Notes: generated by a model from the letters alone, not told the origin. Counted from the first letter of the stretch, positions 1 through 15,200 are shown. The stretch: DNA of 64,000 bases from Candidatus Omnitrophota bacterium (GCA_022710715.1 JAKLGJ010000002.1:234171-298170); one strand, 5' to 3'. Made by a program: numbers and translations.

Positions 1-186
1 CGAAGGAATTATGCCTCCGGTTCCGCCGGAAGATGATTCTCCGGTCGAACCGGTTGAGCCGGTCGAACCGGTTGAACCATAGGTGCCTAGTACGGTATCA
101 AAAGCCCAGGCAAGGTCGGTCAAAACCGGGTTAAGAATGAGTGCCAGCGATAAGGTGGCCGCGAGTAAGCTTTTCAGGGGTTTCAT
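1..186 (-). CDS. partial (5' end only) secreted protein: signal peptide MKPLKSLLAATLSLALILNPVLTDLAWA followed by (GST)n repeat. Extends beyond window start.
   Basis: ATG at 186..184 (rc). GGAGG SD 5 nt upstream (plus-strand cctcc at 190-194). Tandem CCGGTYGAACCGGTTGA DNA repeat at ~40-95 encodes GSTGSTG. Confidence 0.5.
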   Translation of the reverse strand, partial: MKPLKSLLAATLSLALILNPVLTDLAWAFDTVLGTYGSTGSTGSTGSTGESSSGGTGGIIPS

Positions 187-189
187 TGT

Positions 190-400
190 TGCCTCCGTTT
201 TGGGATTCTTGTCAAAATAAAAAACCGGATCGCTATCCTTATTCGGCAACCCGGTATCGGAAACAAAAAAGAGAACTTTTGTCTATCGATCCGTGGCTTT
301 GGTCTCTTCAACAAAACAGAAGAAACCCTTTATCGATAAGGTTTCCCAGTCCTCCCCCTGTCCGCTTAGGCGGACATTTCTATATGTCATAACAAGTATG
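190..400 (-). promoter_or_regulatory. conserved leader element, copy 3 (more diverged) of the leader found upstream of the two paralogous secreted-protein genes. Contains AAAGCCACGGATC.
   Basis: Shares blocks aaaa(t/a)ccggat(t/c)gct(t/a)tcct(g/t)at(t/t)tcggcaacccggt, ccgtggcttt and acttttgt(a)tct with 4141-4390 and 6161-6400. Confidence 0.35.
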
Positions 401-486
401 CCAGAAGAACCGGGAAATTTCAAATAGAATAACTAACTTTTGCTTCTATTAACAGAATAAAAAAAGACGATTTAATCCTGTTTGTT

Positions 487-530
487 GGGGCTGTGCCCCT
501 TGGTTTACCGGGGCACAGCCCTTTCGTTGT
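487..530. terminator. GC-rich hairpin (12-bp stem GGGGCTGTGCCC / GGGCACAGCCCC, 10-nt loop). A T-run follows on the + strand. Sits at the 3' end of the 531..2465 minus-strand gene, so possibly a bidirectional terminator.
   Basis: Inverted repeat 487-499 / 510-521, then tttcgttgtttattttagttta. Confidence 0.45.
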
Positions 531-2465
531 TTATTTTAGTTTATTCAATGCTTCACGGGCGGCATCCGCGACTTTCCACCACCAGCCCTGGGGGTCGTAA
601 CACTGCGCATACTTGTATTCGGCGAGAATGGTCTTATATTCGGTTCTCGCCGCTTCATTATCCTTCAAGGTTTTGTAAATATTTCCCAGGATCAGGTGCG
701 CTGTGCCGACGTCGTTCAAAGCCCAGTAATCCGCTGCTTTGCTTTCGGACGCAAATTTCGAAAGTGACGCCTGCTGTTCTTTGGCTTTGTCGCTGTAGCG
801 GGAGACGGCTTCTTTCGCTAGCGCTGCGGCGTTGCCATAGTCCTTTTTATCGAAGTATTTCCAGGCTTTGGCCAGCAGGGATTCGGAATCGGTGTATTTG
901 CTCAAGTCGGTCTCGGTTGCCGGAGGCAATACGCCGTCTGTGTCCGTGTCCGCATCATCCGTATTTGTATCGGTGCCGTTTCCGGTATCGTCGGTGTCGT
1001 CGTCCGTTGAGTTTATGCCCAGCTTGTCCCTGATCTGCTCGGCTTTTTCGGCATCAAGGGTTTCCAGCTCGGAGAGGATCTCTTTTGCCGAGGTTGACAG
1101 CTTGGAGAATCTACTCGAGAGTTTGTCGGCCCATTCGGAATCCAATCCCCAGTCTTCGAAATTGACATTTCTCCAGAAACCATATCTGCCCATGGATTTG
1201 AGAATATCCGCGCATTGATCTACGCTCAACGCATCGTCGGCGAGAATAGCCGCTGCCTTGGCAGAGTCCATGGTTTTGAATATGGCTCCGGCCTTGCTGG
1301 CCTTGAAGCTGCTGTCGGCCAGGACTGCCGCGGCTTTCGCCGGATCCATGTTCGCCAGGATCTCTCCGGCCTGCTTGGTTAAACGGCCTCGCTTGCCGGA
1401 GTTGCCGGTCCAGGGCCACAGATGGTCCCAGAACCCGCCGGAACCATGCCGGGTTTTGCCGGTCATGGACTGAAGTATTTCCGCAGCCCTGGCAGTATCC
1501 AGTCCTTCCATAATATCCGCAGCCTTAGCGGCATCGGCTTTACCCAGGATCGCCGCGGCTTTGGCGGATTTAAAGTCGGTATCCGCGAATATGGCTACGG
1601 CTTTTTCCGTATCCATGGCCGCAACGATGCTCGACGCGGTAGTTGCGGATGTGCTGGTTTTCTTACTGTTGAAAAACGAGCTCAAGTACGTCGGGTAGGT
1701 AGCCATGCTCATTAGTATCGCTCCGGCTTTTTTCACGTCAAGGCCTTCGAGCATGTCCGCGGCTTCTGCGGTATCCATGGTGGGCATGATGCGCGCTACA
1801 GTTCTGGCTGCAAGATCGTCGCTGTTAAGCAGTTGCGTGGCCCTTTCTGTCTCCAGCGCAGCCAGGATCTCTCCGGCCTGCTGCGTTCCTTTGGGCTGGC
1901 GGGTCAGATTGGTGATCACCGCGGCGGCGAATGGGTCGGCGAGGTCATTGACGATATCCGTCTTTTCCGCGGTAGTTTTGTCGTTGAAATTAACCACGCC
2001 GGTGAGCAGCTCTTTGTCTGTGGCGTCGAGCTTGGAGTCGTTGTTGAGGTCCATGGACTCGTCGAACTCTCCTGCGGTGATCTTGGCGTCCATGGCGTCG
2101 ATATCTTCCTGGTCGACTTTTTTGTCTTCGGTGAAGTCGAAAACTTTAGCCAGGGCGCTGTTCGGCCACCATCCGCCCTTCCAGAATGAGCCCCAGTTGT
2201 CGAATGAAGCGCCGTCCGGGAAGGTCCCTCTCTGTCCCGGTTTGTCGCCGTTGTCCCAGTTCCCCAGAGCACCCTGGGAAGCCTCGCCATTGTGGTCGTT
2301 AACATAGGGGATCATTCCGGCGGACGCTTTTATCGACTTGAAATTGGTCGAGGCCCCGGCAGGCACTTTGGCATTTTCTTTGTCGCTCATCTTGAATGAA
2401 GTGGCGTAGGCGGGCGGGCAGCTCAACATGGCGATGACGATGAGAATCAGGTATCTCTTGATCAT
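531..2465 (-). CDS. secreted protein with repeated MgtE_N/MotE-like helical repeats (D..KAA.IL..M x >=6), an Asp/Thr-rich acidic stretch and a C-terminal TPR-like region.
   Basis: Track ORF 531..2510. Preferred start is the ATG at 2465 (MIKRYLILIVIAML... signal peptide, AYA|TS cleavage site) with AAGGAGGA SD 5 nt upstream. Repeats are visible in the translation. Confidence 0.7.
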   Translation of the reverse strand: MIKRYLILIVIAMLSCPPAYATSFKMSDKENAKVPAGASTNFKSIKASAGMIPYVNDHNGEASQGALGNWDNGDKPGQRGTFPDGASFDNWGSFWKGGWWPNSALAKVFDFTEDKKVDQEDIDAMDAKITAGEFDESMDLNNDSKLDATDKELLTGVVNFNDKTTAEKTDIVNDLADPFAAAVITNLTRQPKGTQQAGEILAALETERATQLLNSDDLAARTVARIMPTMDTAEAADMLEGLDVKKAGAILMSMATYPTYLSSFFNSKKTSTSATTASSIVAAMDTEKAVAIFADTDFKSAKAAAILGKADAAKAADIMEGLDTARAAEILQSMTGKTRHGSGGFWDHLWPWTGNSGKRGRLTKQAGEILANMDPAKAAAVLADSSFKASKAGAIFKTMDSAKAAAILADDALSVDQCADILKSMGRYGFWRNVNFEDWGLDSEWADKLSSRFSKLSTSAKEILSELETLDAEKAEQIRDKLGINSTDDDTDDTGNGTDTNTDDADTDTDGVLPPATETDLSKYTDSESLLAKAWKYFDKKDYGNAAALAKEAVSRYSDKAKEQQASLSKFASESKAADYWALNDVGTAHLILGNIYKTLKDNEAARTEYKTILAEYKYAQCYDPQGWWWKVADAAREALNKLK

Positions 2466-2506
2466 GGTATCCTCCTTGTTTTGTCTGTTATTTCTGTTTA
2501 TAGTCT

Positions 2507-4135
2507 TCATTTCCGGTCTCCTGTATCTATAGTAACTAACCGGGCGATAGACTGCATCCCGGGGAGGGGGGAAGAGGATGCAGTCATTACGCCGGTTAAA
2601 TTATGGGGATTAAAAGATGAATCCGATGCTGGCAACCGGACGACAGACGCCACCCTGGGGAGGGGGGTAAAGGATGTAGTCATATCGCCGGTTAAATCCA
2701 GCATCAAATCAATAGAGAGCTGCATCCCGGGGAGGGGGGAAGAGGAAGCAGCTCTCTGCAACGTTAAGTTATCCTTAACGCCGGAAAATGAAAAATCGGA
2801 ATCAGTGATATGGTTAACAAGAGAATTATCGAAAGCAGGATGATGGGTTGGAGAATAAGAGAAAATGTTTGCGTCGGCCTTATGCTGCGCGGATTGGATG
2901 CGGGAAATAGAGGCAAGGCGATTTCCCGGAGGCGAGAGGCCGGTTTTTACATAATTAACCGCGGATACATCAACAATATCCGCTATATTCATCAGAATAT
3001 TATTTTTTTCATCCTTAAGGTTGCTATTGTGAGCCAGGCAGCACTGTTTTTCTCTCGCCGGGTTTTCTTGATTCAGGGTTTTATGCGCATCAACAGGTAT
3101 TTCAACTGGTTCTCTGGTCGAAGAGGCATTTTCCTGCGCAGGGAGCCTTAAATCTGCATCTGTTGTGGCGATGATTAGAGGTGATTGCTCCATGAGCATG
3201 GATTTTAAGATAGGAATAAGGCCAAACATCGCGAATTGAATCTTCTTTTCTTGATCTCCATCAGTTTCGCGGATATCTTTGACCTCGGATTTATTGGTAT
3301 AGACCGTATCAACCGTATCATTAGATATCGAAGTTTGATCCTTGCCCGATAGACTCTCTTTTGATGAAATAGTAACCTTGTTTTTAATTTGCGCTTTTAA
3401 ATGCGTTATTTCTGACTTAACAGATTTATGTAACATGTTTTTATCAGATTGTTCCGCCTTATATCCGTTTTTAAGGAGTGAATTCTGTAATTCAACCTGC
3501 GCGTTCCGAGATGCAATTTCTTCTTTATCGATTTGTGCGAAAGAAACGCCGGTTTTTTCTAAGTGCGTATTAGAAGTGTCGATTTTAGCTTTTTGCGCGT
3601 CCACTTTTAAAGCCACGGTGCTTTTTATAGCCGAATAAGTGGAATTGCTGTTTCGAGTTTCATTTTTCAGGTTTTTTTTGTTTTCCGAGTGCAGAGCGTA
3701 AAACCGTTCTTCCGAACCGCGGGTTTTGCTGAAGTAGTGATTGTTGAACAGGCTGGAAACAGACCGGTCATTCTGACTCGAATTCTTGCCATGGACATGA
3801 CGTTTGCGGCTTGAATCGTTGGAAGTGTGCGCGGACAGGTTTAACCAATTACTTTTGTGACTTGAGTAATTATTGCTGTATGTCGAGAAAAGTTTGAATA
3901 GCGGCGATCGCGAGCCTGCGGAGCTGGAATCTACGTTAGTATTGGTATCGGTCGATCTGTTGCGATAATTCTGCTGGCGGTTTGAGCTGTAGGCTTCTAT
4001 CTGCTTGGAATGTTTGAAAGTGCGTGCGCCGCTGGAAAAAGCGTAGCTGGGAGGCGCCGCCAAAACGGAGAAAAGCGCCAGGATAACAAAGGCGGTCGGG
4101 GTTCTCCAGATTGTCCGGTTCTCTTGCTTCTCCAT
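2507..4135 (-). CDS. hypothetical secreted protein, paralog A (N-terminus MEKQENRTIWR + signal anchor; Ser/Asn/Lys-rich; conserved C-terminal blocks DTVDTV, P(I/L)LKSM..EQ.PL..AT.D..LRLP, VNY.KTGLSPPGN).
   Basis: ATG at 4135 with GGGAG SD. Paralogous to 4754..6154 at both protein and leader level. Confidence 0.65.
   Translation of the reverse strand: MEKQENRTIWRTPTAFVILALFSVLAAPPSYAFSSGARTFKHSKQIEAYSSNRQQNYRNRSTDTNTNVDSSSAGSRSPLFKLFSTYSNNYSSHKSNWLNLSAHTSNDSSRKRHVHGKNSSQNDRSVSSLFNNHYFSKTRGSEERFYALHSENKKNLKNETRNSNSTYSAIKSTVALKVDAQKAKIDTSNTHLEKTGVSFAQIDKEEIASRNAQVELQNSLLKNGYKAEQSDKNMLHKSVKSEITHLKAQIKNKVTISSKESLSGKDQTSISNDTVDTVYTNKSEVKDIRETDGDQEKKIQFAMFGLIPILKSMLMEQSPLIIATTDADLRLPAQENASSTREPVEIPVDAHKTLNQENPAREKQCCLAHNSNLKDEKNNILMNIADIVDVSAVNYVKTGLSPPGNRLASISRIQSAQHKADANIFSYSPTHHPAFDNSLVNHITDSDFSFSGVKDNLTLQRAASSSPLPGMQLSIDLMLDLTGDMTTSFTPLPRVASVVRLPASDSSFNPHNLTGVMTASSSPLPGMQSIARLVTIDTGDRK
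2520..2790. repeat. 3 copies of a palindromic, G-rich element (..ACCGGGCGATAGACTGCATCC CGGGGAGGGGGGAAGAG GATGCAG..CGCCGGTTAAAT..) inside the 3' coding end of gene 2507..4135. Encodes the SSSPLPGMQ peptide repeat. The G-tracts have G-quadruplex potential on the + strand.
   Basis: Direct reading: GGGGAGGGGGG present three times, flanked by inverted arms CTGCATCC/GGATGCAG or AGAGCTGC/GCAGCTCT. Confidence 0.6.
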
Positions 4136-4140
4136 AGGGC

Positions 4141-4392
4141 TCCCGCAAAATAAAAATCCGGATTGCTTTTCCTGATTTCGGCAACCCGGTTAGTCAAAAA
4201 GGGAAACAATTCCATGGAGAAACAAATAATGTTTTCCCTGACCCCGTGGCTTTCCCCCCTCGAGAGGGGCTTTTCGATCAAGAATTTTACTGCGTGTTAC
4301 AAGCAAAGTATACCTTATGCGCTGCGGTTTTTCAATGCGCAAGAACAAACTTTTGTATCTGTTAACGCAGGCGTAAAGCCGGCTGTGCCGGA
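4141..4392 (-). promoter_or_regulatory. conserved ~250-nt leader, copy 1. In the mRNA sense it contains the GC palindrome hairpin CCCCTC-TCGA-GAGGGG, then GGAAAGCCACGGGG, then ...TTGACTAACCGGGTTGCCGAAATCAGGAAAAGCAATCCGGATTTTT, then the SD.
   Basis: ~80-85% identical by eye to 6161-6400. Confidence 0.45.
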
Positions 4393-4692
4393 CTATGCTT
4401 CAATCCGGCCGAGCAGGCTTTGGTAATCCTGGCGCGTTCTGATTATTACCAGATCATTGTTTAAAGCCTCTTGAATCGCATTAAGCACTATGGCAATCAA
4501 ATTGTCATTATCCATCTTTTCCCAGCGTCTGGCCAGGCCGTTGCGCCTGAATATAGAGTTGCTGCCGGCTGAAATGAAGAAAAGATGGATTCTTCCTGAT
4601 AATTCCTCTCTGGCTAGAAATAATATCGCCTGATTCCCCATGCACAGGACACCGTGAATAAACTTGAGCCGCAGAGAATCCGCCTGGTTCAC
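4393..4692 (-). CDS. hypothetical 99-aa protein (MNQADSLRLKFIHGVL...), GTG start.
   Basis: AGGAGG SD 6 nt upstream of GTG 4692. Sits between the two paralog genes. No family recognised. Confidence 0.45.
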   Translation of the reverse strand: MNQADSLRLKFIHGVLCMGNQAILFLAREELSGRIHLFFISAGSNSIFRRNGLARRWEKMDNDNLIAIVLNAIQEALNNDLVIIRTRQDYQSLLGRIEA

Positions 4693-4753
4693 TAAACACC
4701 TCCTGGTTGTGCTTTATCGCGCATAATCGTCGGTTCTCCTTTTAATCGCAAAT

Positions 4754-6154
4754 TTATAACCGGACGATAGGCTGGCCCTGGGGGGTGGGGTAGGGCACAG
4801 CCACATCGCCGGTTAAATTATTCGTTCCCATCGAAGGAAAAGATGCTGGCAACCGGGCGATAGACTGGGCCCTGGGGGGGTAGGGGAAGAGGGCGCCGTC
4901 ATATCGCCGGTTTAATCCAGCATCAAATGAATTATCAGATGTAATGATATGGTTTGTTGAATTGTTTGATGATGTGTCTGGTGCGAAATCAGTGGAATTA
5001 GAGAGATAAGAGGATGAATCCAGGCGGTTATCTTTATGCGAGGTTTGAACGCGGGAAACAGAAGAAAAGTTGTTTCCCGGAGGCGAAAGGCCTGTTTTCG
5101 CATAATTAACCGCAGTCAGAGCAATCAAATCAATGTTATTGAGAAGAGACTGTGAATTCTCAAAGTTATTATCAGGCGATCCGCCAATGTCGAAATGGTG
5201 AAATTGCTTATAGATATCTTCCGTGCGCGATTTATTTGCATCCAGCGGTAAGTCAAAAGGGTCGGCTTCGGGTAATGCTTCCTGGCTAATCGGCAAGCGC
5301 AGGCCTGTATCGGAAGTGGCGAGCATCAAAGGCAATTGCTCAATGATCATGTTTTTAAATATCGGCATAACTCCGTAAGGAGAATTCTGTATTTTCTTTT
5401 GATGTTTTGCGGTATCCTGCAGACTCTTCACCTCAAATTTCTGCGGAGATACCGTATCAACCGTATCGCGGGGCGAAAAAGCATGATTTTCTTTTCCGGT
5501 CAATGAATTCGAGCTATATGCCATCTTATTTTTGATTTCTAACGTCAAATGAACCGTAGATTGATTTTTATCTTTATTTACATCCATTTGCCGGGCTTCG
5601 ACTAAATTTTTCTTGTTTTTATGGTTCAATTCCATTGAGGCAGGGTTGGGAGTATTGATTGATCTGGATTGTTCGGGCTTTATCCTTGTCGCCGCCTCCT
5701 GATGATGCGTCTTCTGATTATTTTGCGTTGGGTTTTTATCAATACATGCTTTAACGCTTAACGCGTGCGTATTTGCGGGATTGGAAGCTTTGGCTCCGTC
5801 GGCCCGATTGGTTGTTGGTTGAACAGTGGAGGGAGTAACTAACCGATTAGCCAGGTTTTTAGTGAATTCTGCGGTACTGGCGGATGTTTTTCTCACGCTG
5901 ACATTGATTTTGGGAGAAGGGGATATCTGACGCAAGGTGAAAGCAGAGTTAAAGCCGTCGCCGCCGCGATCGTAACTCGAGGGAGACACGTCGAATTCTG
6001 CATAGCAAGGGGTTATAATGAGCGAGGAGAAACCTCCGATTATACGCCTGATTGCAATGTCATCAGCCAGTCCGCATTGACTGCTTAAAAATAAAGCGAT
6101 AATCGTAAGATTGACTATCCTGCGCCAGATTGTCCGGTTCGCTTGTTTCTCCAT
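4754..6154 (-). CDS. hypothetical secreted protein, paralog B (MEKQANRTIWR...).
   Basis: ATG at 6154. Shares N-terminus, C-terminal blocks and 3' G-rich repeats with 2507..4135. Confidence 0.65.
   Translation of the reverse strand: MEKQANRTIWRRIVNLTIIALFLSSQCGLADDIAIRRIIGGFSSLIITPCYAEFDVSPSSYDRGGDGFNSAFTLRQISPSPKINVSVRKTSASTAEFTKNLANRLVTPSTVQPTTNRADGAKASNPANTHALSVKACIDKNPTQNNQKTHHQEAATRIKPEQSRSINTPNPASMELNHKNKKNLVEARQMDVNKDKNQSTVHLTLEIKNKMAYSSNSLTGKENHAFSPRDTVDTVSPQKFEVKSLQDTAKHQKKIQNSPYGVMPIFKNMIIEQLPLMLATSDTGLRLPISQEALPEADPFDLPLDANKSRTEDIYKQFHHFDIGGSPDNNFENSQSLLNNIDLIALTAVNYAKTGLSPPGNNFSSVSRVQTSHKDNRLDSSSYLSNSTDFAPDTSSNNSTNHIITSDNSFDAGLNRRYDGALFPYPPRAQSIARLPASFPSMGTNNLTGDVAVPYPTPQGQPIVRL
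4760..4925. repeat. 2 copies of the same G-rich palindromic element as 2520-2790 (..CCTGGGGGGTGGGGTAGGG.. / ..CCTGGGGGGGTAGGGGAAGAGGG..), flanked by AACCGG(A/G)CGATAG ... ATCGCCGGTT(T)AAAT inverted arms.
   Basis: Direct reading. Four G3+ tracts per copy. Confidence 0.55.
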
Positions 6155-6160
6155 TTGGCC

Positions 6161-6400
6161 CCTTAAAAAGAAAAATCCGGATTGCTTTTCCTGATTTCGG
6201 CAACCCGGTCAGTCAATGAAAAGGGAAAATCAAATTGAGAAACAAAAGCAATTCCCCCGACCCCGTGGCTTTCCCCGCCGGAGCGGGGCTTTTCGATCAA
6301 GAATTCTGCTGCATTGTTCAGTCAAAGTATAGCTTACCGCGGGCGTATTTTCAAGGCAGAAAGGCCGACTTTTGTATCTGTTAACAAGCGGGTTAAATCG
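6161..6400 (-). promoter_or_regulatory. conserved leader, copy 2 (hairpin CCCCGC-CGGA-GCGGGG, GGAAAGCCACGGGG, GCGGGTTAAAT x2).
   Basis: Near-identical blocks with 4141-4390. Confidence 0.45.
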
Positions 6401-6406
6401 GGCGGG

Positions 6407-8374
6407 TTAAATATTGATTCCGTATCCGGTGGCTTTTTTGAGTCCGGCTAAGGCCAGGAAGTAGTTGCCCAGGGCCTGGAAATATTTGGTCTGGGCGTCA
6501 GCCAGGCTGAAGAGCGAATCCATGGCTGAAGAAAGGGAAGCGTCGTTGACCATGGCTCTGATCTTGGTGATCTCGGCCTGGTTGCGGCGGAAAGCCATAT
6601 CCGCTGCGGCGGTATTGAGTTGCAATATGGCTTTCTGGTAATTCAAAAAAGAATCCTGGACTTCGAAGGTGATCGTTTTTTTGGTTTCATTGAGATCGCT
6701 GTAAGAACGATGCAGGTCGACGTCGGCTTTTTTCAAAGAGGATATCCCGGCGAAATTATCCAGGATACCCAGTTCTGCGCTGGCAGAGGTGGTCTCGGAG
6801 TTGTTGGTATGCCCGTAGCGGCGCTGCATTTTTTCGTGCAAAAAGGAGCTTTTTAAAGAGCTGGCGCCCAGCATTTTGCTGACTTTGATGCCCGCGGCCC
6901 AGTTCGCGGAATTCTGGAGATCTTCGGTTTTGTAATTGCCCCAGTAGTATTCATAAGAACCCACGGCGTCTATGGCGAAATTATCCTTGTCCAGCTCGAT
7001 CTTCTTGCCGTATTTATTGAACTTGACCATCATCTCGCCGATGTATATTTCCGGCCGGCTTTTCAGGGCTACATCAAAAAGCTCGTCGAGATTAAGATTC
7101 GGCTTGGTGACTTCCGGTTCCGCGAGTTGTATTTCCGGCAAATCCTTGGTGTTGAGCACCTGCTTGAAAGTAAGCTCCGCCAGATAAATATCTTCCTTCA
7201 GACTGGCCAACTGGAATTCGATCTGTTCGAAAGACGATTGCGCGCTTTTTAATTCCAGCGGGATGATCATCCCGATATCGGCTAATTTCTGGATCCGGGT
7301 GAGCAGTTCCTGGGCTTCGGTGCGCAGGGCTTCTTTATAGCGCCAATGGGTGCGCGAAGCGATGAGGTTGTAATAAGCGGTTTCGGTTTTATGGATGATC
7401 TCATACTGCAGGCGGTTGAGGTTCATCTTGGAAACTTCCAGGTTGGCTTTAGCGTGCTCGATGGAATCCAGCAATCTCCCGCCGTAATAGATCGGCTGGT
7501 TTACCTCGATTTTCGCATTCATTTCGCGATAAGGTCCGGAGTAATCACCGTCGGTATAGCTGCTGGAAACTTTAGCCGTGGGCAGAAGATTGCGCATGGC
7601 TTCTTTGACTTTGAACTCCGCCAGGTCCACTTCTTTCTGCGCGACCGCAGTAGGTTTATTATTCTTAAGGGACGTTTGAATGAAAGCGCTTAGTTCTTCC
7701 GGCCAGCGGACCGCAGAAGCTTTGGGTTCATAGCGGGTGGCGATCGGTATGCCTATGTCGACGGGTTGCTGCATGGGAGAGAATGCGGGTTGTTCCGGGC
7801 TTTCTTCTTCCGTCGCGGGCTGCTCTTCCTGTTGCGCGAGTAACTGCTGTAATTCTTCCGGCGAAACTTCGCGCTCGTATACGCCTTCCTGCTCCAGCGC
7901 CATTTCGGATTCGCCTTCCAGCGGCTGCGAGAAATCCGGTTCATAAAAATTCGGTTGCGAGGGCACCTCGATTATATCGCCCAGGTCATCCGTACTAATG
8001 TCGGAGATCGCGTATCTTAACGGTAAAACTATCTCCACTTCTTCGTAGCCGTCATAGTCTTCCGGCAACGGATACGGTCCTGCGTCGCGCACTGCCGTTA
8101 CCGCCTGCTCATCGAGAATGGGGTATCCGGATGATTCGGCGATCATGATAGCTTTGAGGTTCCCATCCGCGGCAATCGTGACTTTAAGAGTAACAATTCC
8201 TTCCCAGCCATTTTCAATAGCTTCATCCGGATAGATGAGCAGGGAATTGATCTTTTGTTGCACAAAATTGAGATATTCAGTATTCAGGGGGGCGAGCTGG
8301 GCAAAGAGGCTGCAAAGCGGCAACGCCAAAGATAAAAAGAATAATACCAATAAGATAATGATTTTTCTCGGCAT
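6407..8374 (-). CDS. TonB C-terminal domain fused to a TolC-like outer-membrane efflux protein (OEP).
   Basis: Preferred start is the ATG at 8374 (MPRKIIILLVLFF signal; GAGGA SD); the track ORF starts at 8422. N-terminal YPDEAIENGWEGIVTLKVTIAADGNLKAIMIAESSGYPILDEQAVTAVRDAG matches the TonB_C pattern. The rest shows TolC-family coiled-coil/beta-barrel repeat character. Confidence 0.65.
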   Translation of the reverse strand: MPRKIIILLVLFFLSLALPLCSLFAQLAPLNTEYLNFVQQKINSLLIYPDEAIENGWEGIVTLKVTIAADGNLKAIMIAESSGYPILDEQAVTAVRDAGPYPLPEDYDGYEEVEIVLPLRYAISDISTDDLGDIIEVPSQPNFYEPDFSQPLEGESEMALEQEGVYEREVSPEELQQLLAQQEEQPATEEESPEQPAFSPMQQPVDIGIPIATRYEPKASAVRWPEELSAFIQTSLKNNKPTAVAQKEVDLAEFKVKEAMRNLLPTAKVSSSYTDGDYSGPYREMNAKIEVNQPIYYGGRLLDSIEHAKANLEVSKMNLNRLQYEIIHKTETAYYNLIASRTHWRYKEALRTEAQELLTRIQKLADIGMIIPLELKSAQSSFEQIEFQLASLKEDIYLAELTFKQVLNTKDLPEIQLAEPEVTKPNLNLDELFDVALKSRPEIYIGEMMVKFNKYGKKIELDKDNFAIDAVGSYEYYWGNYKTEDLQNSANWAAGIKVSKMLGASSLKSSFLHEKMQRRYGHTNNSETTSASAELGILDNFAGISSLKKADVDLHRSYSDLNETKKTITFEVQDSFLNYQKAILQLNTAAADMAFRRNQAEITKIRAMVNDASLSSAMDSLFSLADAQTKYFQALGNYFLALAGLKKATGYGINI

Positions 8375-8410
8375 TATTTCCTCAAATTTAGATATATTTA
8401 GACAAGCTAG

Positions 8411-8439
8411 ATTATATAGCAATGCTTAAAATTTGTCAA
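8411..8439 (-). promoter_or_regulatory. consensus sigma70 promoter for the TonB_C-OEP gene (TTGACA - 17 nt - TATAAT on the minus strand).
   Basis: Plus-strand ATTATA 8411-8416 and TGTCAA 8434-8439. Confidence 0.6.
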
Positions 8440-8447
8440 GAGTTATT

Positions 8448-8474
8448 TGATACGGTATCAGTGATACGGTATCA
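8448..8474. promoter_or_regulatory. two tandem 13-bp perfect palindromes, TGATACgGTATCA (8448-8460 and 8462-8474). Candidate dimeric-regulator operator in the divergent promoter region.
   Basis: Direct reading. TGATAC and GTATCA are reverse complements. Confidence 0.55.
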
Positions 8475-8556
8475 ATTGGTATTATCGGCAAACGTGGCAA
8501 TAAAATCAGTTAATTTAAACTTTTTGTTAAAGCAACAAAAATATAGCTCCGCTGCC

Positions 8557-8591: not shown

Positions 8592-8927
8592 ATGGTATGC
8601 AAACTATGCGGTAATGAATTCCAGCCTAGCAAATATCACGCCAATCAACAGGTTTGCGGCAGCGCGGAATGTCAGAAGACGAGGCAGCTGCAGAACCAGA
8701 AGGAATGGCGCCAGCGCAATCCGGATTATTTTAAATGCCTCGGCCAAGAACAGGCTTGGAAAGAGAAGCGCCGGCGTTATAATCGCCTCTGGAAAGTCAC
8801 GCACCAGGATTTCCTCAAGGACTACGATCAAGATCACAAAGAGCAGCGCAGGGAATATATGCGCGGCTACATGCGCCGCTACCGTAGTCAATCGTTAACA
8901 GAGAAAAAAGTTAGTATAATTACTTGA
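8592..8927 (+). CDS. small basic Zn-ribbon protein (MVCKLCGNEF...QVCGSAEC then a Lys/Arg/Gln-rich tail), FmdB-like flavour. Leaderless start.
   Basis: CxxC..CxxxxC ribbon. The track ORF uses TTG 8586; ATG 8592 is preferred. The TGA stop at 8925-8927 overlaps the -35 of the giant-gene promoter. Confidence 0.45.
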   Translation: MVCKLCGNEFQPSKYHANQQVCGSAECQKTRQLQNQKEWRQRNPDYFKCLGQEQAWKEKRRRYNRLWKVTHQDFLKDYDQDHKEQRREYMRGYMRRYRSQSLTEKKVSIIT

Positions 8928-8952
8928 CATAGCCATTATTAACGATTATACT
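8924..8952 (+). promoter_or_regulatory. consensus sigma70 promoter of the giant gene (TTGACA 8924-8929, 17-nt spacer, TATACT 8947-8952).
   Basis: Direct reading. Confidence 0.6.
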
Positions 8953-9015
8953 TTTGGTGGAACTAAGTGCTTTTTTAAATAAATGTAAATTTATAAAAAA
9001 AGTACTTCTTATACG

Positions 9016-9092
9016 AAAAAGGCAAACCAAGAGAAATCTTGGGACGCAAAGCCACGGATCCTCGAGAGAGAAACTTTCAGGATAGCCGAGTT
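9016..9092 (+). ncRNA. candidate c-di-GMP-I (GEMM) riboswitch aptamer. GGCAAACC (9021-9028); P1 6-bp stem with GAAA tetraloop (9027-9042); GGGACGCAAAGCC (9041-9053); P2 (ACGGATCC ... GGATAGCCGAG, to ~9090).
   Basis: Same architecture and near-identical conserved blocks as the Vibrio Vc2 aptamer, as remembered: GGCAAA-CCAUUC-GAAA-GAGUGG-GACGCAAAGCC. Confidence 0.6.
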
Positions 9093-9120
9093 ACCGAAAT
9101 GAGTAGCTCGGCTTTCTTGT
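9084..9120 (+). terminator. intrinsic terminator / expression platform. AGCCGAG-16 nt-CTCGGCT hairpin followed by TTCTTGTTT. Its 5' arm is the 3' arm of riboswitch P2, so the two are mutually exclusive.
   Basis: Inverted repeat 9084-9090 / 9107-9113, then a U-rich tract. Confidence 0.55.
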
Positions 9121-12200: not shown

Positions 12201-15200
12201 GGTGCAGGCGGCTACCGACGGGACCAGAGCGGCGATTGATACTGCCGCGAAAATGATCGAATACAAAGCAGGCGAAACGATTAAAGATATTGTCGCTCCG
12301 GTAGTGAACATGGTCAGCCCGGATGCCGCCAAAGCTTTCAGCAAAGTCGGCGACGCGCTGACTACTGATGCGCGCAAAAATCCGGTCGTGGAAACCGTGG
12401 CTAAGACCGAAGAAGCCTTCAAGCAGGCAGTGGTTGATCCGATCATCACCACCGCGAGCAAAGCTATTGCTCCGGTTACGGAAACTGTGGCTAAAATCAC
12501 CTCTTCTTTTGCCCAGCCGGCACAGTCGTCCGAAACCCCGGTTATTATCGCGCAGTCCTCCAACACCACTCCCAGCATATTCAGCAAAGAAAATCAGGCT
12601 CAAGTCAAAGCTTTGATCAACGGAGTGAACAGCCCGATCAGCGCGCAGGCGGCGACTACCCCGAATGAAGGTTATACCTTCGTCAGCGGCACTGCGGTCA
12701 ACGGCACTGCCGCCAACCAGGCCGTTTCTCCGGCGTTCAACCAGACCCAGACCACTTCGAGCCCTTCGATTGTGTCTACTATCGCTTCGGCCATTTTCTC
12801 CTCTTCCACCGTGCAGAATCCTGCTACCGGCGCCGCCACCACGACGTACAGCGTCCTGGGCGTTCCGGTGGCTACCTATAATACGCAGACCCAGAGCGGC
12901 ACTATCGGCGTGGGCGCGGTTACTTTCATGAACTACAATTACAATTCCTCAACCGGCGCAGTTACCTATACTTTTGCGCCCGGCATCGAAACCTCCAGAC
13001 TGACCCCTGGGGCTAATGGGTCGGGGACTGCTTCAACGCAGACCCCGGCCCGTTACACTACTTCCGGCAATACCACGCCGGCAGTGGATGGGGCGTCTGT
13101 TAATAAAGAAGTGCAGACCAGCAATCCCGGGCAGCAGGTTGGCTTAACCGCAGGTCTGGCAGCCATGGCTGCGGTGATGGGGCCGTTGGGCGTGGCTTTG
13201 CTCACCGGCGCGAACCTGTATAACGCGGCCCAGGACTGGACTACCGTTTCTAAACCTGCGGCTGCAGATGTGGCTTCTGAAGACGCCAGCAGAGCCGTGC
13301 AGGCTTCCACCGGCAATGCCCAGCAGACCGGTATACTCGATGGGATCAAGACGTGGTTTAATAATACCTTCAATAAGGACAATTCTACGATCCAGCAGGA
13401 TCAGCTGATCAAGGATCAGAATCAGGACAAGCAGGTTTCCAACGGCGGCAATCTTCTGCCGGTCCTGGATAAAATCAATGCCAACGGTCTGCTCAAGAAT
13501 ATGAGCGCCAGCAAGACGCTTCCGGCCGGCGCTCCCGCAGGCGAAGCCGTTGTGCCCGCCGGCACCGGCGCCAACAACCAGACTAACGACGCTAATAACC
13601 CTACCAGCCAGGTTAAGGATACCAATGTGATCAACCAGTTCATTTCCTGGGTCGGCGGATGGTTCACCGATCCCAATTCGAGACGTACTACCGGTGTGGC
13701 TCCGCCGTCCGATAACTCTACTACTTCTTCTAATCAAACCGCATCGACTTCTGCCACCACCGGCACCAATCCTATCGCTAGCTTCTTAGGCAATGTCTTG
13801 TCCGCCTTCACCGGCAAAAATGATAAAGCTCTTGATCTTGATCAAACTGTAAGCAGCGCTTCTTTGATCTTCACTGCCATAGCTCCTCAAATCCCGGCAC
13901 TGGCCGCTATCTTTACCGGCAAGAATCCTACCCAGCCTGTAATGGACGGTATCGGCAAGCTTCTGAATCCCGAAAAACCAACCACTGCGATACCCGCTTT
14001 CAAAGTCAATGACACTCTGCTGCAGCAGTACAAAACCTCCTGGCCCAACGGTTATGGCGCGGCCATGGCTAATGTTACCGCGAATCAGGCCGTTCTTGAC
14101 CAGAAAGCCAAAGCCCTGGACCAGTATTTTACTGCAGTCGAAGAAAATGGCAAAACCTACTTACAGCCTAAACCGAATGTTAACCAGGCTGCCGCTGACC
14201 AGGCATATCAAGAATTTCAAGAGGCCCATACCAATTATCTCAATGCTACCAAAGCGGCCAATATAGGAGAAGACGGAAAGATTACTCCTGAAGCCGCGAA
14301 GGCTCTTAATGATTTCGAAGAGGCCTATGATTATGCATCCTTCACCGTTAATAATGGCCAGGGCGCGCAGACGTACAACTATGTCGGCGTGAATGGGTCG
14401 GTCTACGGCATTGACAGCAGCAAGGTTTACACCACCCAGAAAATCGCGGATAACACCTATTTGCTCCAGGATAACGGTAAGACCGTGTCCATTCTCACTA
14501 CCGATGCCCAGGGCGCTCCGGTCTCCATGATGGCGGTTGCTCCCAATGCGCAAGTCAGCACTGTGAACGGCCAGGTCGTTTTGACCTCCGGGGATAATAA
14601 ATACAAAGCTACGGTCAGCCCGGTGAAGAACGCCGCTGACCAGACCGTGCTCCAGGTTTCTGCCGAAGAATTCAAAACCTCTTTTGCGGATTTCGCCAAG
14701 AGCTGGGTTTTGAATGCCATCGGCGTGGAAAACACCGCTCCGGGTAATTATGAATCTGTGGGCGCGGTGAGTTTCAATGTGGGTTATACTGCACAGCATC
14801 CTACCGGAGAAACCACCTATACCTATGCCACCAGCATGCCGCAGCCGGGCGTTGTGGAATTTATTCAGGGGCTCATTGGTGCAAAGGTAACAAAGCAGGA
14901 TTACGAGTTACGCGCCAAAGATCAGACCATTATTTCAACCGGTACCGATGGTGCGCAGAATTATTCCGCTGCCAGAAAGACGACCCTGCAGGATTATGCG
15001 CAGATGGTGCTCAATCCGGAGGTTGACCCTACCACCAAAGCTATTGTTGCTGATCAGGCGGTTGCCCGCGAATTTACTCCTGCCCCGCTTGATTATCTCT
15101 GGGCATATATGACCAGCGGCGGAAATCCCGCTTTGGCCACTATGCAGGTGATGCAGAAAACCAGCGATAAAATAGAAACATTCGGCGCTTCCCAGGATCC

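Follow-up and report, generated by a model that had tools for sequence, protein, structure and literature searches.

Three leaders beside a giant gene of Candidatus Omnitrophota are simplified copies of a c-di-GMP-I riboswitch module and probable transcription attenuators

Introduction

In a 64,000-nucleotide (nt) stretch of DNA from a Candidatus Omnitrophota bacterium (GCA_022710715.1, JAKLGJ010000002.1:234171-298170; hereafter the window), a riboswitch of the type that binds cyclic di-guanosine monophosphate (c-di-GMP) precedes a giant gene on the plus strand, and three leaders, L1, L2 and L3, precede genes for secreted proteins on the minus strand. The leaders share blocks of sequence with one another and with the giant-gene riboswitch, which raises the question of what they are and whether they answer the same signal. 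A preliminary description had proposed that the shared segment is a common cis element, such as a site bound by a protein or small RNA (sRNA) or a co-regulated attenuator, and had held that the leaders are not copies of the GEMM (c-di-GMP-I, or GEMM-I) riboswitch. We found that L1-L3, judged by alignment and predicted fold, are paralogous, structurally simplified copies of the canonical GEMM-I module that lies 2.6 kb away. Modelled folds and energies, covariation and conservation in relatives suggest, with a probability of about 0.6, that they are a working transcription-attenuation variant of GEMM-I, probably still responsive to c-di-GMP with weaker binding.

Results

The blocks reported as common to the three leaders and the giant-gene riboswitch are all present. 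AAAGCCACGG occurs exactly at 291-300, 4244-4253 and 6263-6272 on the minus strand and at 9048-9057 on the plus strand; one further exact match, at 3609, is coding and unrelated, and with one mismatch there are 14 matches against 5.0 expected. CCGGGTTGCCGAA is found exactly three times, once per leader, and the reported 13/13 match, AAAGCCACGGATC, is indeed common to L1 and the riboswitch. The block described as ACTTTTGT(A)TCT is a portion of a 19-nt upstream box, GTTAACAGAnAnAAAAGTT (also written GTTAACAGAAGCAAAAGTT), which has four matches in the window (the three leaders and the giant-gene promoter) against 0.12 by chance. Every copy lies ~12 nt upstream of the -35 hexamer of a TTGAAA/TTGACA-17-TATACT promoter, and the same box is also present at two related loci, L162 and L230. 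The box is presumably a transcription-factor site.

What had been described as a leader of ~250 nt is made up of the box and a sigma-70 promoter (~80 nt) and then a 5′ untranslated region of ~165-200 nt. L2 and L3 are 77-81% identical, rather than the ~80-85% first given, and L1 aligns with them at ~54-55% identity over the full length, where shuffled sequence gives ~48%. Since this figure is barely above that of the shuffles, the similarity of L1 is confined to the blocks. In a four-way alignment with the canonical module, the box, the promoter, helix P1a, junction strand J1/2, the linker, helix P2, junction strand J3/1 and the terminator are common, and the P1b arm alone differs (helices are named after Strobel, PMC11705072: P1a is the closing stem, P1b the first hairpin and P2 the second). 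The idea of a common cis element linking the envelope genes to the giant gene thus holds, in the form of a shared module that includes the box.

The giant-gene copy is a canonical c-di-GMP-I-type aptamer (RF03167, 71.6 bits). At the Rfam gathering level none of L1-L3 is reported. In a permissive Rfam scan, all three match the c-di-GMP-I clan over the full length, below the gathering thresholds: L1 (242-338) matches RF01051 with 28.5 bits (E=0.022; threshold 35), L2 (4176-4279) matches RF03167 with 25.8 bits (E=0.011; threshold 59), and L3 (6196-6299) matches RF01051 with 18.9 bits (E=4.9; threshold 35). In these alignments, model positions are lost solely from the P1b internal loop, on its AAACC strand and on its GGACG strand. 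No match of L1-L3 to any other Rfam family was found, and no further copies were found in the remaining window or in the 10 kb past L1.

The predicted minimum-energy fold of each isolated aptamer domain is a three-way junction, P1a - AAAAG - P1b - AA - P2 - GC - P1a (Table 1); the folding z-score of L1 is -3.8. AAAGCCACGG is the AAA linker (A47-A49) plus the 5′ strand of P2, which pairs with CCGGGUU in each copy, and AAAGCC directly follows P1b in L1-L3 and in all relatives. In GEMM RNAs the linker is almost without exception AAA, just 2 of 322 departing from it (PMC1950547). The ligand is contacted by G20, A47, A48 and C92, and A49 engages the second pair of P1b in an A-minor contact (PMC3764141). 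With these positions mapped through the Rfam alignment and that work, the equivalents of G20 (in J1/2, AUAAAG or AAAAG) and of C92 (in J3/1, GC ahead of the P1a CG) are also kept. The strings GGCAAACC and GGGACGC of the aptamer core are missing from all three leaders, as the preliminary description stated. Its conclusion that these are not GEMM copies was nevertheless wrong, in view of the full-length clan matches, the same three-way junction, the kept pocket positions and the terminator that overlaps P2. Clearly GEMM-I-derived as they are, the leaders are not filed here as ordinary members, because they lack the internal loop and the GNRA loop, do not keep G83 and score under the Rfam threshold.

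In the solved structure of Vc2, the P1b internal loop and the GNRA tetraloop clamp this arm to P2; with a plain helix in their place, L1-L3 fall below the Rfam thresholds. The P1b internal loop of GEMM RNAs shows strong conservation, and the loop closing this arm is 'almost always GNRA' (PMC1950547); in the Vc2 riboswitch of Vibrio cholerae, C44 of the internal loop has as its pairing partner a bulged base of P2, G83, and the tetraloop is stacked against its receptor (PMC11705072). In L1-L3, P1b is an uninterrupted helix: it has neither the conserved 3x3 internal loop (A23, A25, G42 and C44), which elsewhere separates a 2-bp from a 6-bp stem, nor a GNRA tetraloop. L2 and L3 have deletions at the AAACC and GGACG model positions, and L1 has GGUUU paired with AGACC. 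The terminal loops are UGUUUUGUU (L1), UCGA (L2) and UCCG (L3), none of them GNRA. The GC hairpins noted earlier in L2 and L3 exist, as CCCCUC-UCGA-GGGGGG (4254-4269) and CCCCGC-UCCG-GCGGGG (6273-6288). At the G83-equivalent position, 5′ of CCGGG, L1, L2 and L3 all carry A; this position is G in 224/225 canonical-like elements collected versus 3/10 elements with a straight P1b (Fisher p~1e-10, on sequences that are not independent). Because the partner base G83 has drifted along with the loop, the architecture has truly changed, and misalignment does not account for the missing loop.

Intermediate P1b arms were found elsewhere. Those at the L3 position of L162 and L230 have the internal loop AAU/UGC; L052 is of the same type, and L029 has GAU/GC. 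Read from these alignments, the lineage is one of graded clamp erosion, from the canonical through the altered loop to the loop-free arm. The intermediate arms, in which these loops replace the canonical AAA/GAC, keep the C44 and G83 equivalents and score near or under the Rfam thresholds.

The full leaders are predicted to fold differently from the isolated domains. In the minimum-energy fold the intrinsic terminator hairpin, which lies shortly ahead of the start codon, is formed, its 5′ strand being the 3′ strand of P2, and the 3′ strand of P1a lies in its loop; the canonical copy is wired alike. Since the terminator takes its 5′ strand from P2, folding of the junction excludes the terminator. 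In a two-state energy comparison, which ignores kinetics and tertiary structure, the terminator is favoured over the aptamer state by 1.7-2.6 kcal/mol in L1-L3, by 4.7-9.7 kcal/mol in relatives and by 12.9 kcal/mol in the canonical copy.

Relatives were sought in one genome per species with the pattern AAAGCCACGG-N28-58-CCGRGTTRCCGAA. Among the matches listed, 111/120, from many phyla, carry the canonical GGCAAACC...GGACGC arm and are ordinary aptamers, which makes AAAGCCACGG a family-wide c-di-GMP-I consensus. At least three Omnitrophota elements (L015, L072 and L091) have an uninterrupted P1b. A metagenome pattern aimed at short P1b arms also took in canonical GAAAG tetraloops: 113/130 of the matches listed were canonical, and the scan added L162C, L230C and L167. 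Two more elements, L162B and L230A, were not chosen by a search pattern and were found by an Rfam scan of contigs. Straight-P1b relatives outside the window thus number at least seven (L162B included), from Omnitrophota genomes and metagenomes. L117 (Patescibacteria) and L024 (Elusimicrobia), which have the P2 pattern, could not be assigned to the straight-P1b variant and were left out. L117 (reverse complement of 4014-4064 plus 70 nt upstream) has a GEMM-I P2 and J3/1, two upstream hairpins and no AAAG, and a four-way junction is predicted for it.

Three of these loci, L015, L162 and L230, are syntenic with the window through a gene for a TolC-like/TonB_C fusion protein. L162 carries three such leaders on one strand (54.5, 23.4 and 22.6 bits in Rfam); in L230, a canonical copy (64.3 bits) in the opposite direction is followed by the TolC/TonB_C gene and then by leaders of 44 and 30 bits. 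The TolC-like protein is 61% identical to that of the window in L230 and 44% in L015; the L162 contig holds its 3′ end alone. In L015 the element comes straight after the TolC/TonB_C gene, the place that L3 has in the window. L2, L162C and L230C each stand ahead of a distant member of the same divergent secreted-protein family, with an MgtE_N-like gene coming next in the window and in L230. Despite the 44% identity of the TolC-like proteins, ~40 nt of the aptamer core outside the search pattern are nearly identical in L1 and L015.

Comparison of the homologues supports the P1a/P1b/P2 fold and shows that the design recurs in related genomes. P1b is helical in 10/10 straight elements: 82/83 pairs are standard, in helices of 4-16 bp and unrelated sequence (for example GGUUUCUUC/GAAGAGACC, CCCCUC/GGGGGG, CCUGCUC/GAGCAGG and GGUUUGACAG/CUGUCAGACU). 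MAFFT alignments of the variants, in which P1b and P1a were inconsistent with the structure, were dropped and replaced by manual segmentation checked against the sequences and by covariance-model alignment. A covariance model built from three relatives recovers L2, L3 and L1 with 76, 69 and 41 bits; the canonical copy was not recovered by it at E <= 0.01. In the alignment made with the model, 98.7% of cells are paired, with changes on both sides in 17/26 pairs, which 0/500 shuffles matched; slid registers pair at 26-54%. The covarying helices are P1a, P1b and distal P2; proximal P2 is invariant, but fixed by the pattern. At the junction there is little or no variation in (A)AAAG or AUAAAG, AA, (G/A)C and the CG/CG pairs topping P1a, which extends to L162B and L230A, and the J1/2 of L162A, AACAUG, still ends in G.

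Discussion

The overlap of terminator and P2 suggests how L1-L3 might work. A folded junction would leave no terminator, and RNA polymerase would read into the secreted-protein gene, making each leader an ON switch. The junction would still bind a ligand, likeliest c-di-GMP, more weakly than the canonical aptamer does; we infer binding from the retention of the pocket nucleotides between genomes whose TolC-like proteins are 44-61% identical and from the near identity of the L1 and L015 cores. The weaker terminators of L1-L3 may offset the smaller binding energy: as their margin over the aptamer state is so narrow, a weaker binder could still flip them. The four units would then answer one signal at differing thresholds.

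Several observations weigh against this proposal. In Vc2, the G83C and C44G/G83C mutations abolished detectable c-di-GMP binding, an RNA with a weakened tetraloop-receptor contact was trapped misfolded, and A62G folded slowly (PMC11705072); on the Vc2 scaffold, an RNA without either contact should bind poorly. The z-scores of L2 (-1.3) and L3 (-1.1) are not significant and are hence not used as support. The scan patterns fixed the linker, P2 and J3/1, so that invariance there is partly a matter of ascertainment; covariation was counted on a model-fitted alignment of related sequences, and as the elements are related, the Fisher and shuffle figures treat them as more independent than they are. 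The near-equal energies of aptamer and terminator also fit constitutive, leaky read-through. Together with the Vc2 mutants, these energies speak for the alternative that L1-L3 are ligand-blind relics, duplicated GEMM-I modules without the P1b clamp and without c-di-GMP binding, which give fixed partial termination or answer temperature, transcription speed or NTP levels. The missing internal loop and GNRA loop and the relaxed constraint on G83 point the same way, and the box at all four promoters offers a separate route by which box and promoter, and not RNA, would co-regulate these genes with the giant gene. Yet an attenuator that works by structure only needs pairing, not sequence, and here J1/2 AAAAG, the AAA linker, (G/A)C and CG/CG are fixed, J1/2 having no part in the terminator. 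The ligand-contact positions (PMC3764141) stay, divergence or covariation is seen in the flanks, in P1b and in distal P2, and the design persists at syntenic positions in at least three genomes. We regard relics as the chief alternative, if an unlikely one.

The pocket could also have changed its specificity, such that the straight-P1b aptamer senses pGpG, another cyclic or linear dinucleotide or an unrelated ligand, and the locus has two inputs. GEMM-I variants of altered specificity are known, for c-AMP-GMP (cyclic AMP-GMP; PMC7266159), the architecture differs systematically from that of the canonical copy in the same locus, and the base of the L1-type P1b is conserved in sequence (GGUUU/AGACY in L1 and L015). 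The positions that set specificity, G20, A47 and C92, are unchanged, however, the genes controlled are of the same kind as that of the canonical copy, and nothing positive points to another ligand, which makes a changed ligand very unlikely. A related proposal, that straight-P1b elements form a separate, undescribed GEMM-I-derived subclass with a clamp-independent pocket, binding another ligand or binding c-di-GMP differently and so giving the cluster a further RNA-sensed input, is distinctly unlikely too. The chance that AAAGCCACGG and the GC hairpin are a protein or sRNA site with no relation to a riboswitch fold is close to negligible. The 10-mer is exact in all four leaders and the terminator loops have GGA motifs, as such a site might; it is, however, made up of the AAA linker and the P2 5′ strand, which pairs with CCGGGUU everywhere, and it is a general GEMM-I consensus across many phyla. 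Between species the GC hairpin keeps its pairing only, not its sequence, and a candidate sRNA or protein partner was not found. We therefore reject this half of the earlier proposal; its other half, a co-regulated attenuator, came near to the reading as a GEMM-I-derived attenuator that we prefer.

On that reading, the closest known system is c-di-GMP-I (RF01051, clan CL00126, Vc2 type). The leaders resemble it in the P1a/P1b/P2 junction, G20, the AAA linker and C92, in the P2 consensus strands AAAGCCACGG and CCGGGUUGCC, in the competition between terminator and 3′ side of P2 and in control of genes for extracellular or membrane proteins, which classically make up the GEMM regulon (PMC1950547). 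They differ from it by the lack of the 3-nt P1b internal loop (A23-A25 / G42-C44), the GNRA tetraloop and the G83 bulge, by a longer P1a (8+2 bp), by sub-threshold scores and by a weaker terminator relative to the aptamer. About half of the original GEMM set lacks the tetraloop receptor (PMC1950547), showing that the tetraloop-receptor contact is dispensable in natural members; unlike the leaders, these RNAs keep the P1b internal loop, usually a GYRA loop, and often an extra bulged A in P2. Natural variants of GEMM-I in the same clan include c-di-GMP-I-GGC (RF03167) and c-di-GMP-I-UAU (RF03168), the former being the best model for L2 and the canonical copy. Their Rfam consensus lines and names indicate substitutions at ligand contacts with the P1b loop kept, the reverse of what is seen in the leaders. 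The G at position 47 that marks the GGC variant (consensus ...ACGCGAAGCC) is A in the leaders and in the canonical copy (AAAGCC). In the c-AMP-GMP riboswitch, GEMM-Ib, G20 is changed to A and P1b is intact. It is likewise a GEMM-I derivative that builds a separate regulon beside canonical copies; its A at position 20 is not found in L1-L3, where the final base of J1/2 is G. No earlier description of a clamp-less GEMM-I or of Omnitrophota riboswitches was found in the literature. The finding is a structural variant of a known riboswitch class that is new to the literature searched.

For Vc2, structural and mutational work holds the P1b internal loop, the tetraloop contact and C44-G83 pairing to be essential. 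If L1-L3 are functional, a c-di-GMP-I-type junction works naturally without any of the three, and would be a minimal natural aptamer. One cell would also set several thresholds for one second messenger, with a strongly terminated canonical copy on a gene of 54,154 amino acids (aa) and three weak-terminator variants on other secreted proteins. As such elements score below Rfam thresholds, c-di-GMP regulons would be under-annotated in Omnitrophota and related uncultured phyla. Should the leaders instead be blind, they would be a clear example of a decayed riboswitch whose pocket nucleotides are kept.

Genes and further features of the locus

The features are collected in Table 1.

Table 1. Leaders, reference module, genes and repeats, with intermediate arms from other loci
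Feature	Position	Strand	Details
Leader L1	214-453	minus	
L1 upstream box	435..453	minus	GTTAATAGAAGCAAAAGTT
L1 promoter	395..423	minus	sigma-70-type, TTGAAA-17-CATACT
L1 three-way junction	237..341	minus	P1a 334-341 with 237-245; J1/2 AUAAAG 328-333; J3/1 GC 246-247
L1 arms		minus	straight P1b GGUUUCUUC/GAAGAGACC 301-327; AA linker and P2 5′ strand 287-300; P2 3′ strand 248-259
L1 intrinsic terminator	214..255	minus	ACCGGGUUGC...GCGAUCCGGU + U6AU4; 5′ strand is the P2 3′ strand
L1-controlled gene, start	1..186	minus	secreted open reading frame (ORF) continuing beyond the window edge
Leader L2	4147-4366	minus	
L2 upstream box	4348..4366	minus	GTTAACAGATACAAAAGTT
L2 promoter	4307..4335	minus	TTGAAA-17-TATACT
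L2 three-way junction	4169..4284	minus	P1a 4275-4284 with 4169-4180; J1/2 AAAAG 4270-4274; J3/1 GC 4181-4182
L2 arms		minus	P1b 4254-4269; linker and P2 5′ strand 4240-4253; P2 3′ strand 4183-4195
L2 intrinsic terminator	4147..4189	minus	CCGGGUUGC-(14-nt loop)-GCAAUCCGG + AU5AU4; ends 11 nt before ATG at 4135
L2-controlled gene	2507..4135	minus	542-aa secreted protein, no Pfam family
MgtE_N-like protein gene	531-2510	minus	659 aa; next in operon after the 542-aa gene
Leader L3	6165-6385	minus	
L3 upstream box	6367..6385	minus	GTTAACAGATACAAAAGTC
L3 promoter	6326..6354	minus	TTGAAA-17-TATACT
L3 three-way junction	6188..6303	minus	P1a 6294-6303 with 6188-6199; J1/2 AAAAG 6289-6293; J3/1 GC 6200-6201
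L3 arms		minus	P1b 6273-6288; linker and P2 5′ strand 6259-6272; P2 3′ strand 6202-6214
L3 intrinsic terminator	6165..6208	minus	CCGGGUUGC...GCAAUCCGG + AU5CU5
L3-controlled gene	4754..6154	minus	466-aa secreted protein, then a 99-aa ORF
TolC-like/TonB_C fusion gene	6407-8422	minus	
Reference giant-gene module	8894..9113	plus	box 8894-8912; promoter 8924-8952; aptamer 9012-9099; terminator 9084-9113
64-80-nt repeat, five copies	2530-2606, 2626-2702, 2700-2775, 4748-4826, 4840-4924	minus	within the 3′ ends of both paralogous ORFs
Intermediate arm, L162	8182-8313	minus	
Intermediate arm, L230	5279-5450	plus	
Intermediate arm, L052	2393-2514	plus	
Intermediate arms, L029	4-128 and 732-859	minus	

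Besides the assembly used here, the genome is represented by GCA_035453765.1, by JGI 3300009776, from anaerobic digester samples, and by ENA assemblies. On the minus strand, the TolC-like/TonB_C fusion gene is followed by the L3, L2 and L1 units in this order, and the genes under L1-L3 encode secreted or envelope proteins. The 466-aa and 542-aa proteins are paralogues (35% identity, common N-terminus MEKQxNRTIWR). Searches with these two paralogues gave zero related loci in genome contigs and, in a homologous-protein search, returned the query alone; they failed because the downstream proteins are fast-evolving orphans, distant homologues of which do exist, as found by a later BLASTP. The complete ORF under L1 encodes 2,554 aa with a signal peptide, is Ser/Thr-rich and has MgtE_N-like repeats. 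It corresponds to L243 12325-19989 and is split in public gene calls, which start at 13027 and overlay its 5′ part, rich in Ser, Gly and Thr, with two small antisense genes. The giant ORF (window 9139-64000, plus strand; also L243 1-2694) exceeds 18,287 aa and is open at the window end; the gene call on the longest contig, a 914-kb ENA contig, gives it 54,154 aa. A signal peptide and an extended Ser/Thr-rich stretch lie at its N-terminus.

Two hairpins are present in L1 and missing from L2 and L3. One is the 5′ hairpin GUCCGC-CUAA-GCGGAC (359-376, minus), directly after the predicted start site. The other, GGGAAACC...GGGUUUC with a U-rich run (320-347, minus), is an alternative hairpin that would compete with P1a and P1b.

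Just upstream of the perfect TTGACA-17-TATAAT promoter (8439..8411) of the TolC/TonB_C gene, the palindrome TGATACGGTATCA occurs twice (8446-8480), an arrangement that suggests an operator recognised by a dimeric regulator. A related motif, GATACGGTTGATACGGTTATAA, is present in the intergenic regions of L162 and L230.

For each of the 64-80-nt repeats in the paralogous genes, folding predicts an extended stem-loop (-22 to -42 kcal/mol) whose loop is C-rich and 12-16 nt long, for example CUUCCCCCCUCCCC, and the stems show compensatory differences among copies. The repeats translate in frame (..SSPLPGMQSIARL..) and are missing from the L162 and L230 homologues; insertions of palindromic elements or structured 3′ modules of the mRNA are two possible explanations. 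L2 contains the complement, GAGGGGGGAA, of one repeat loop, UUCCCCCCUC, a match that may be due to chance.

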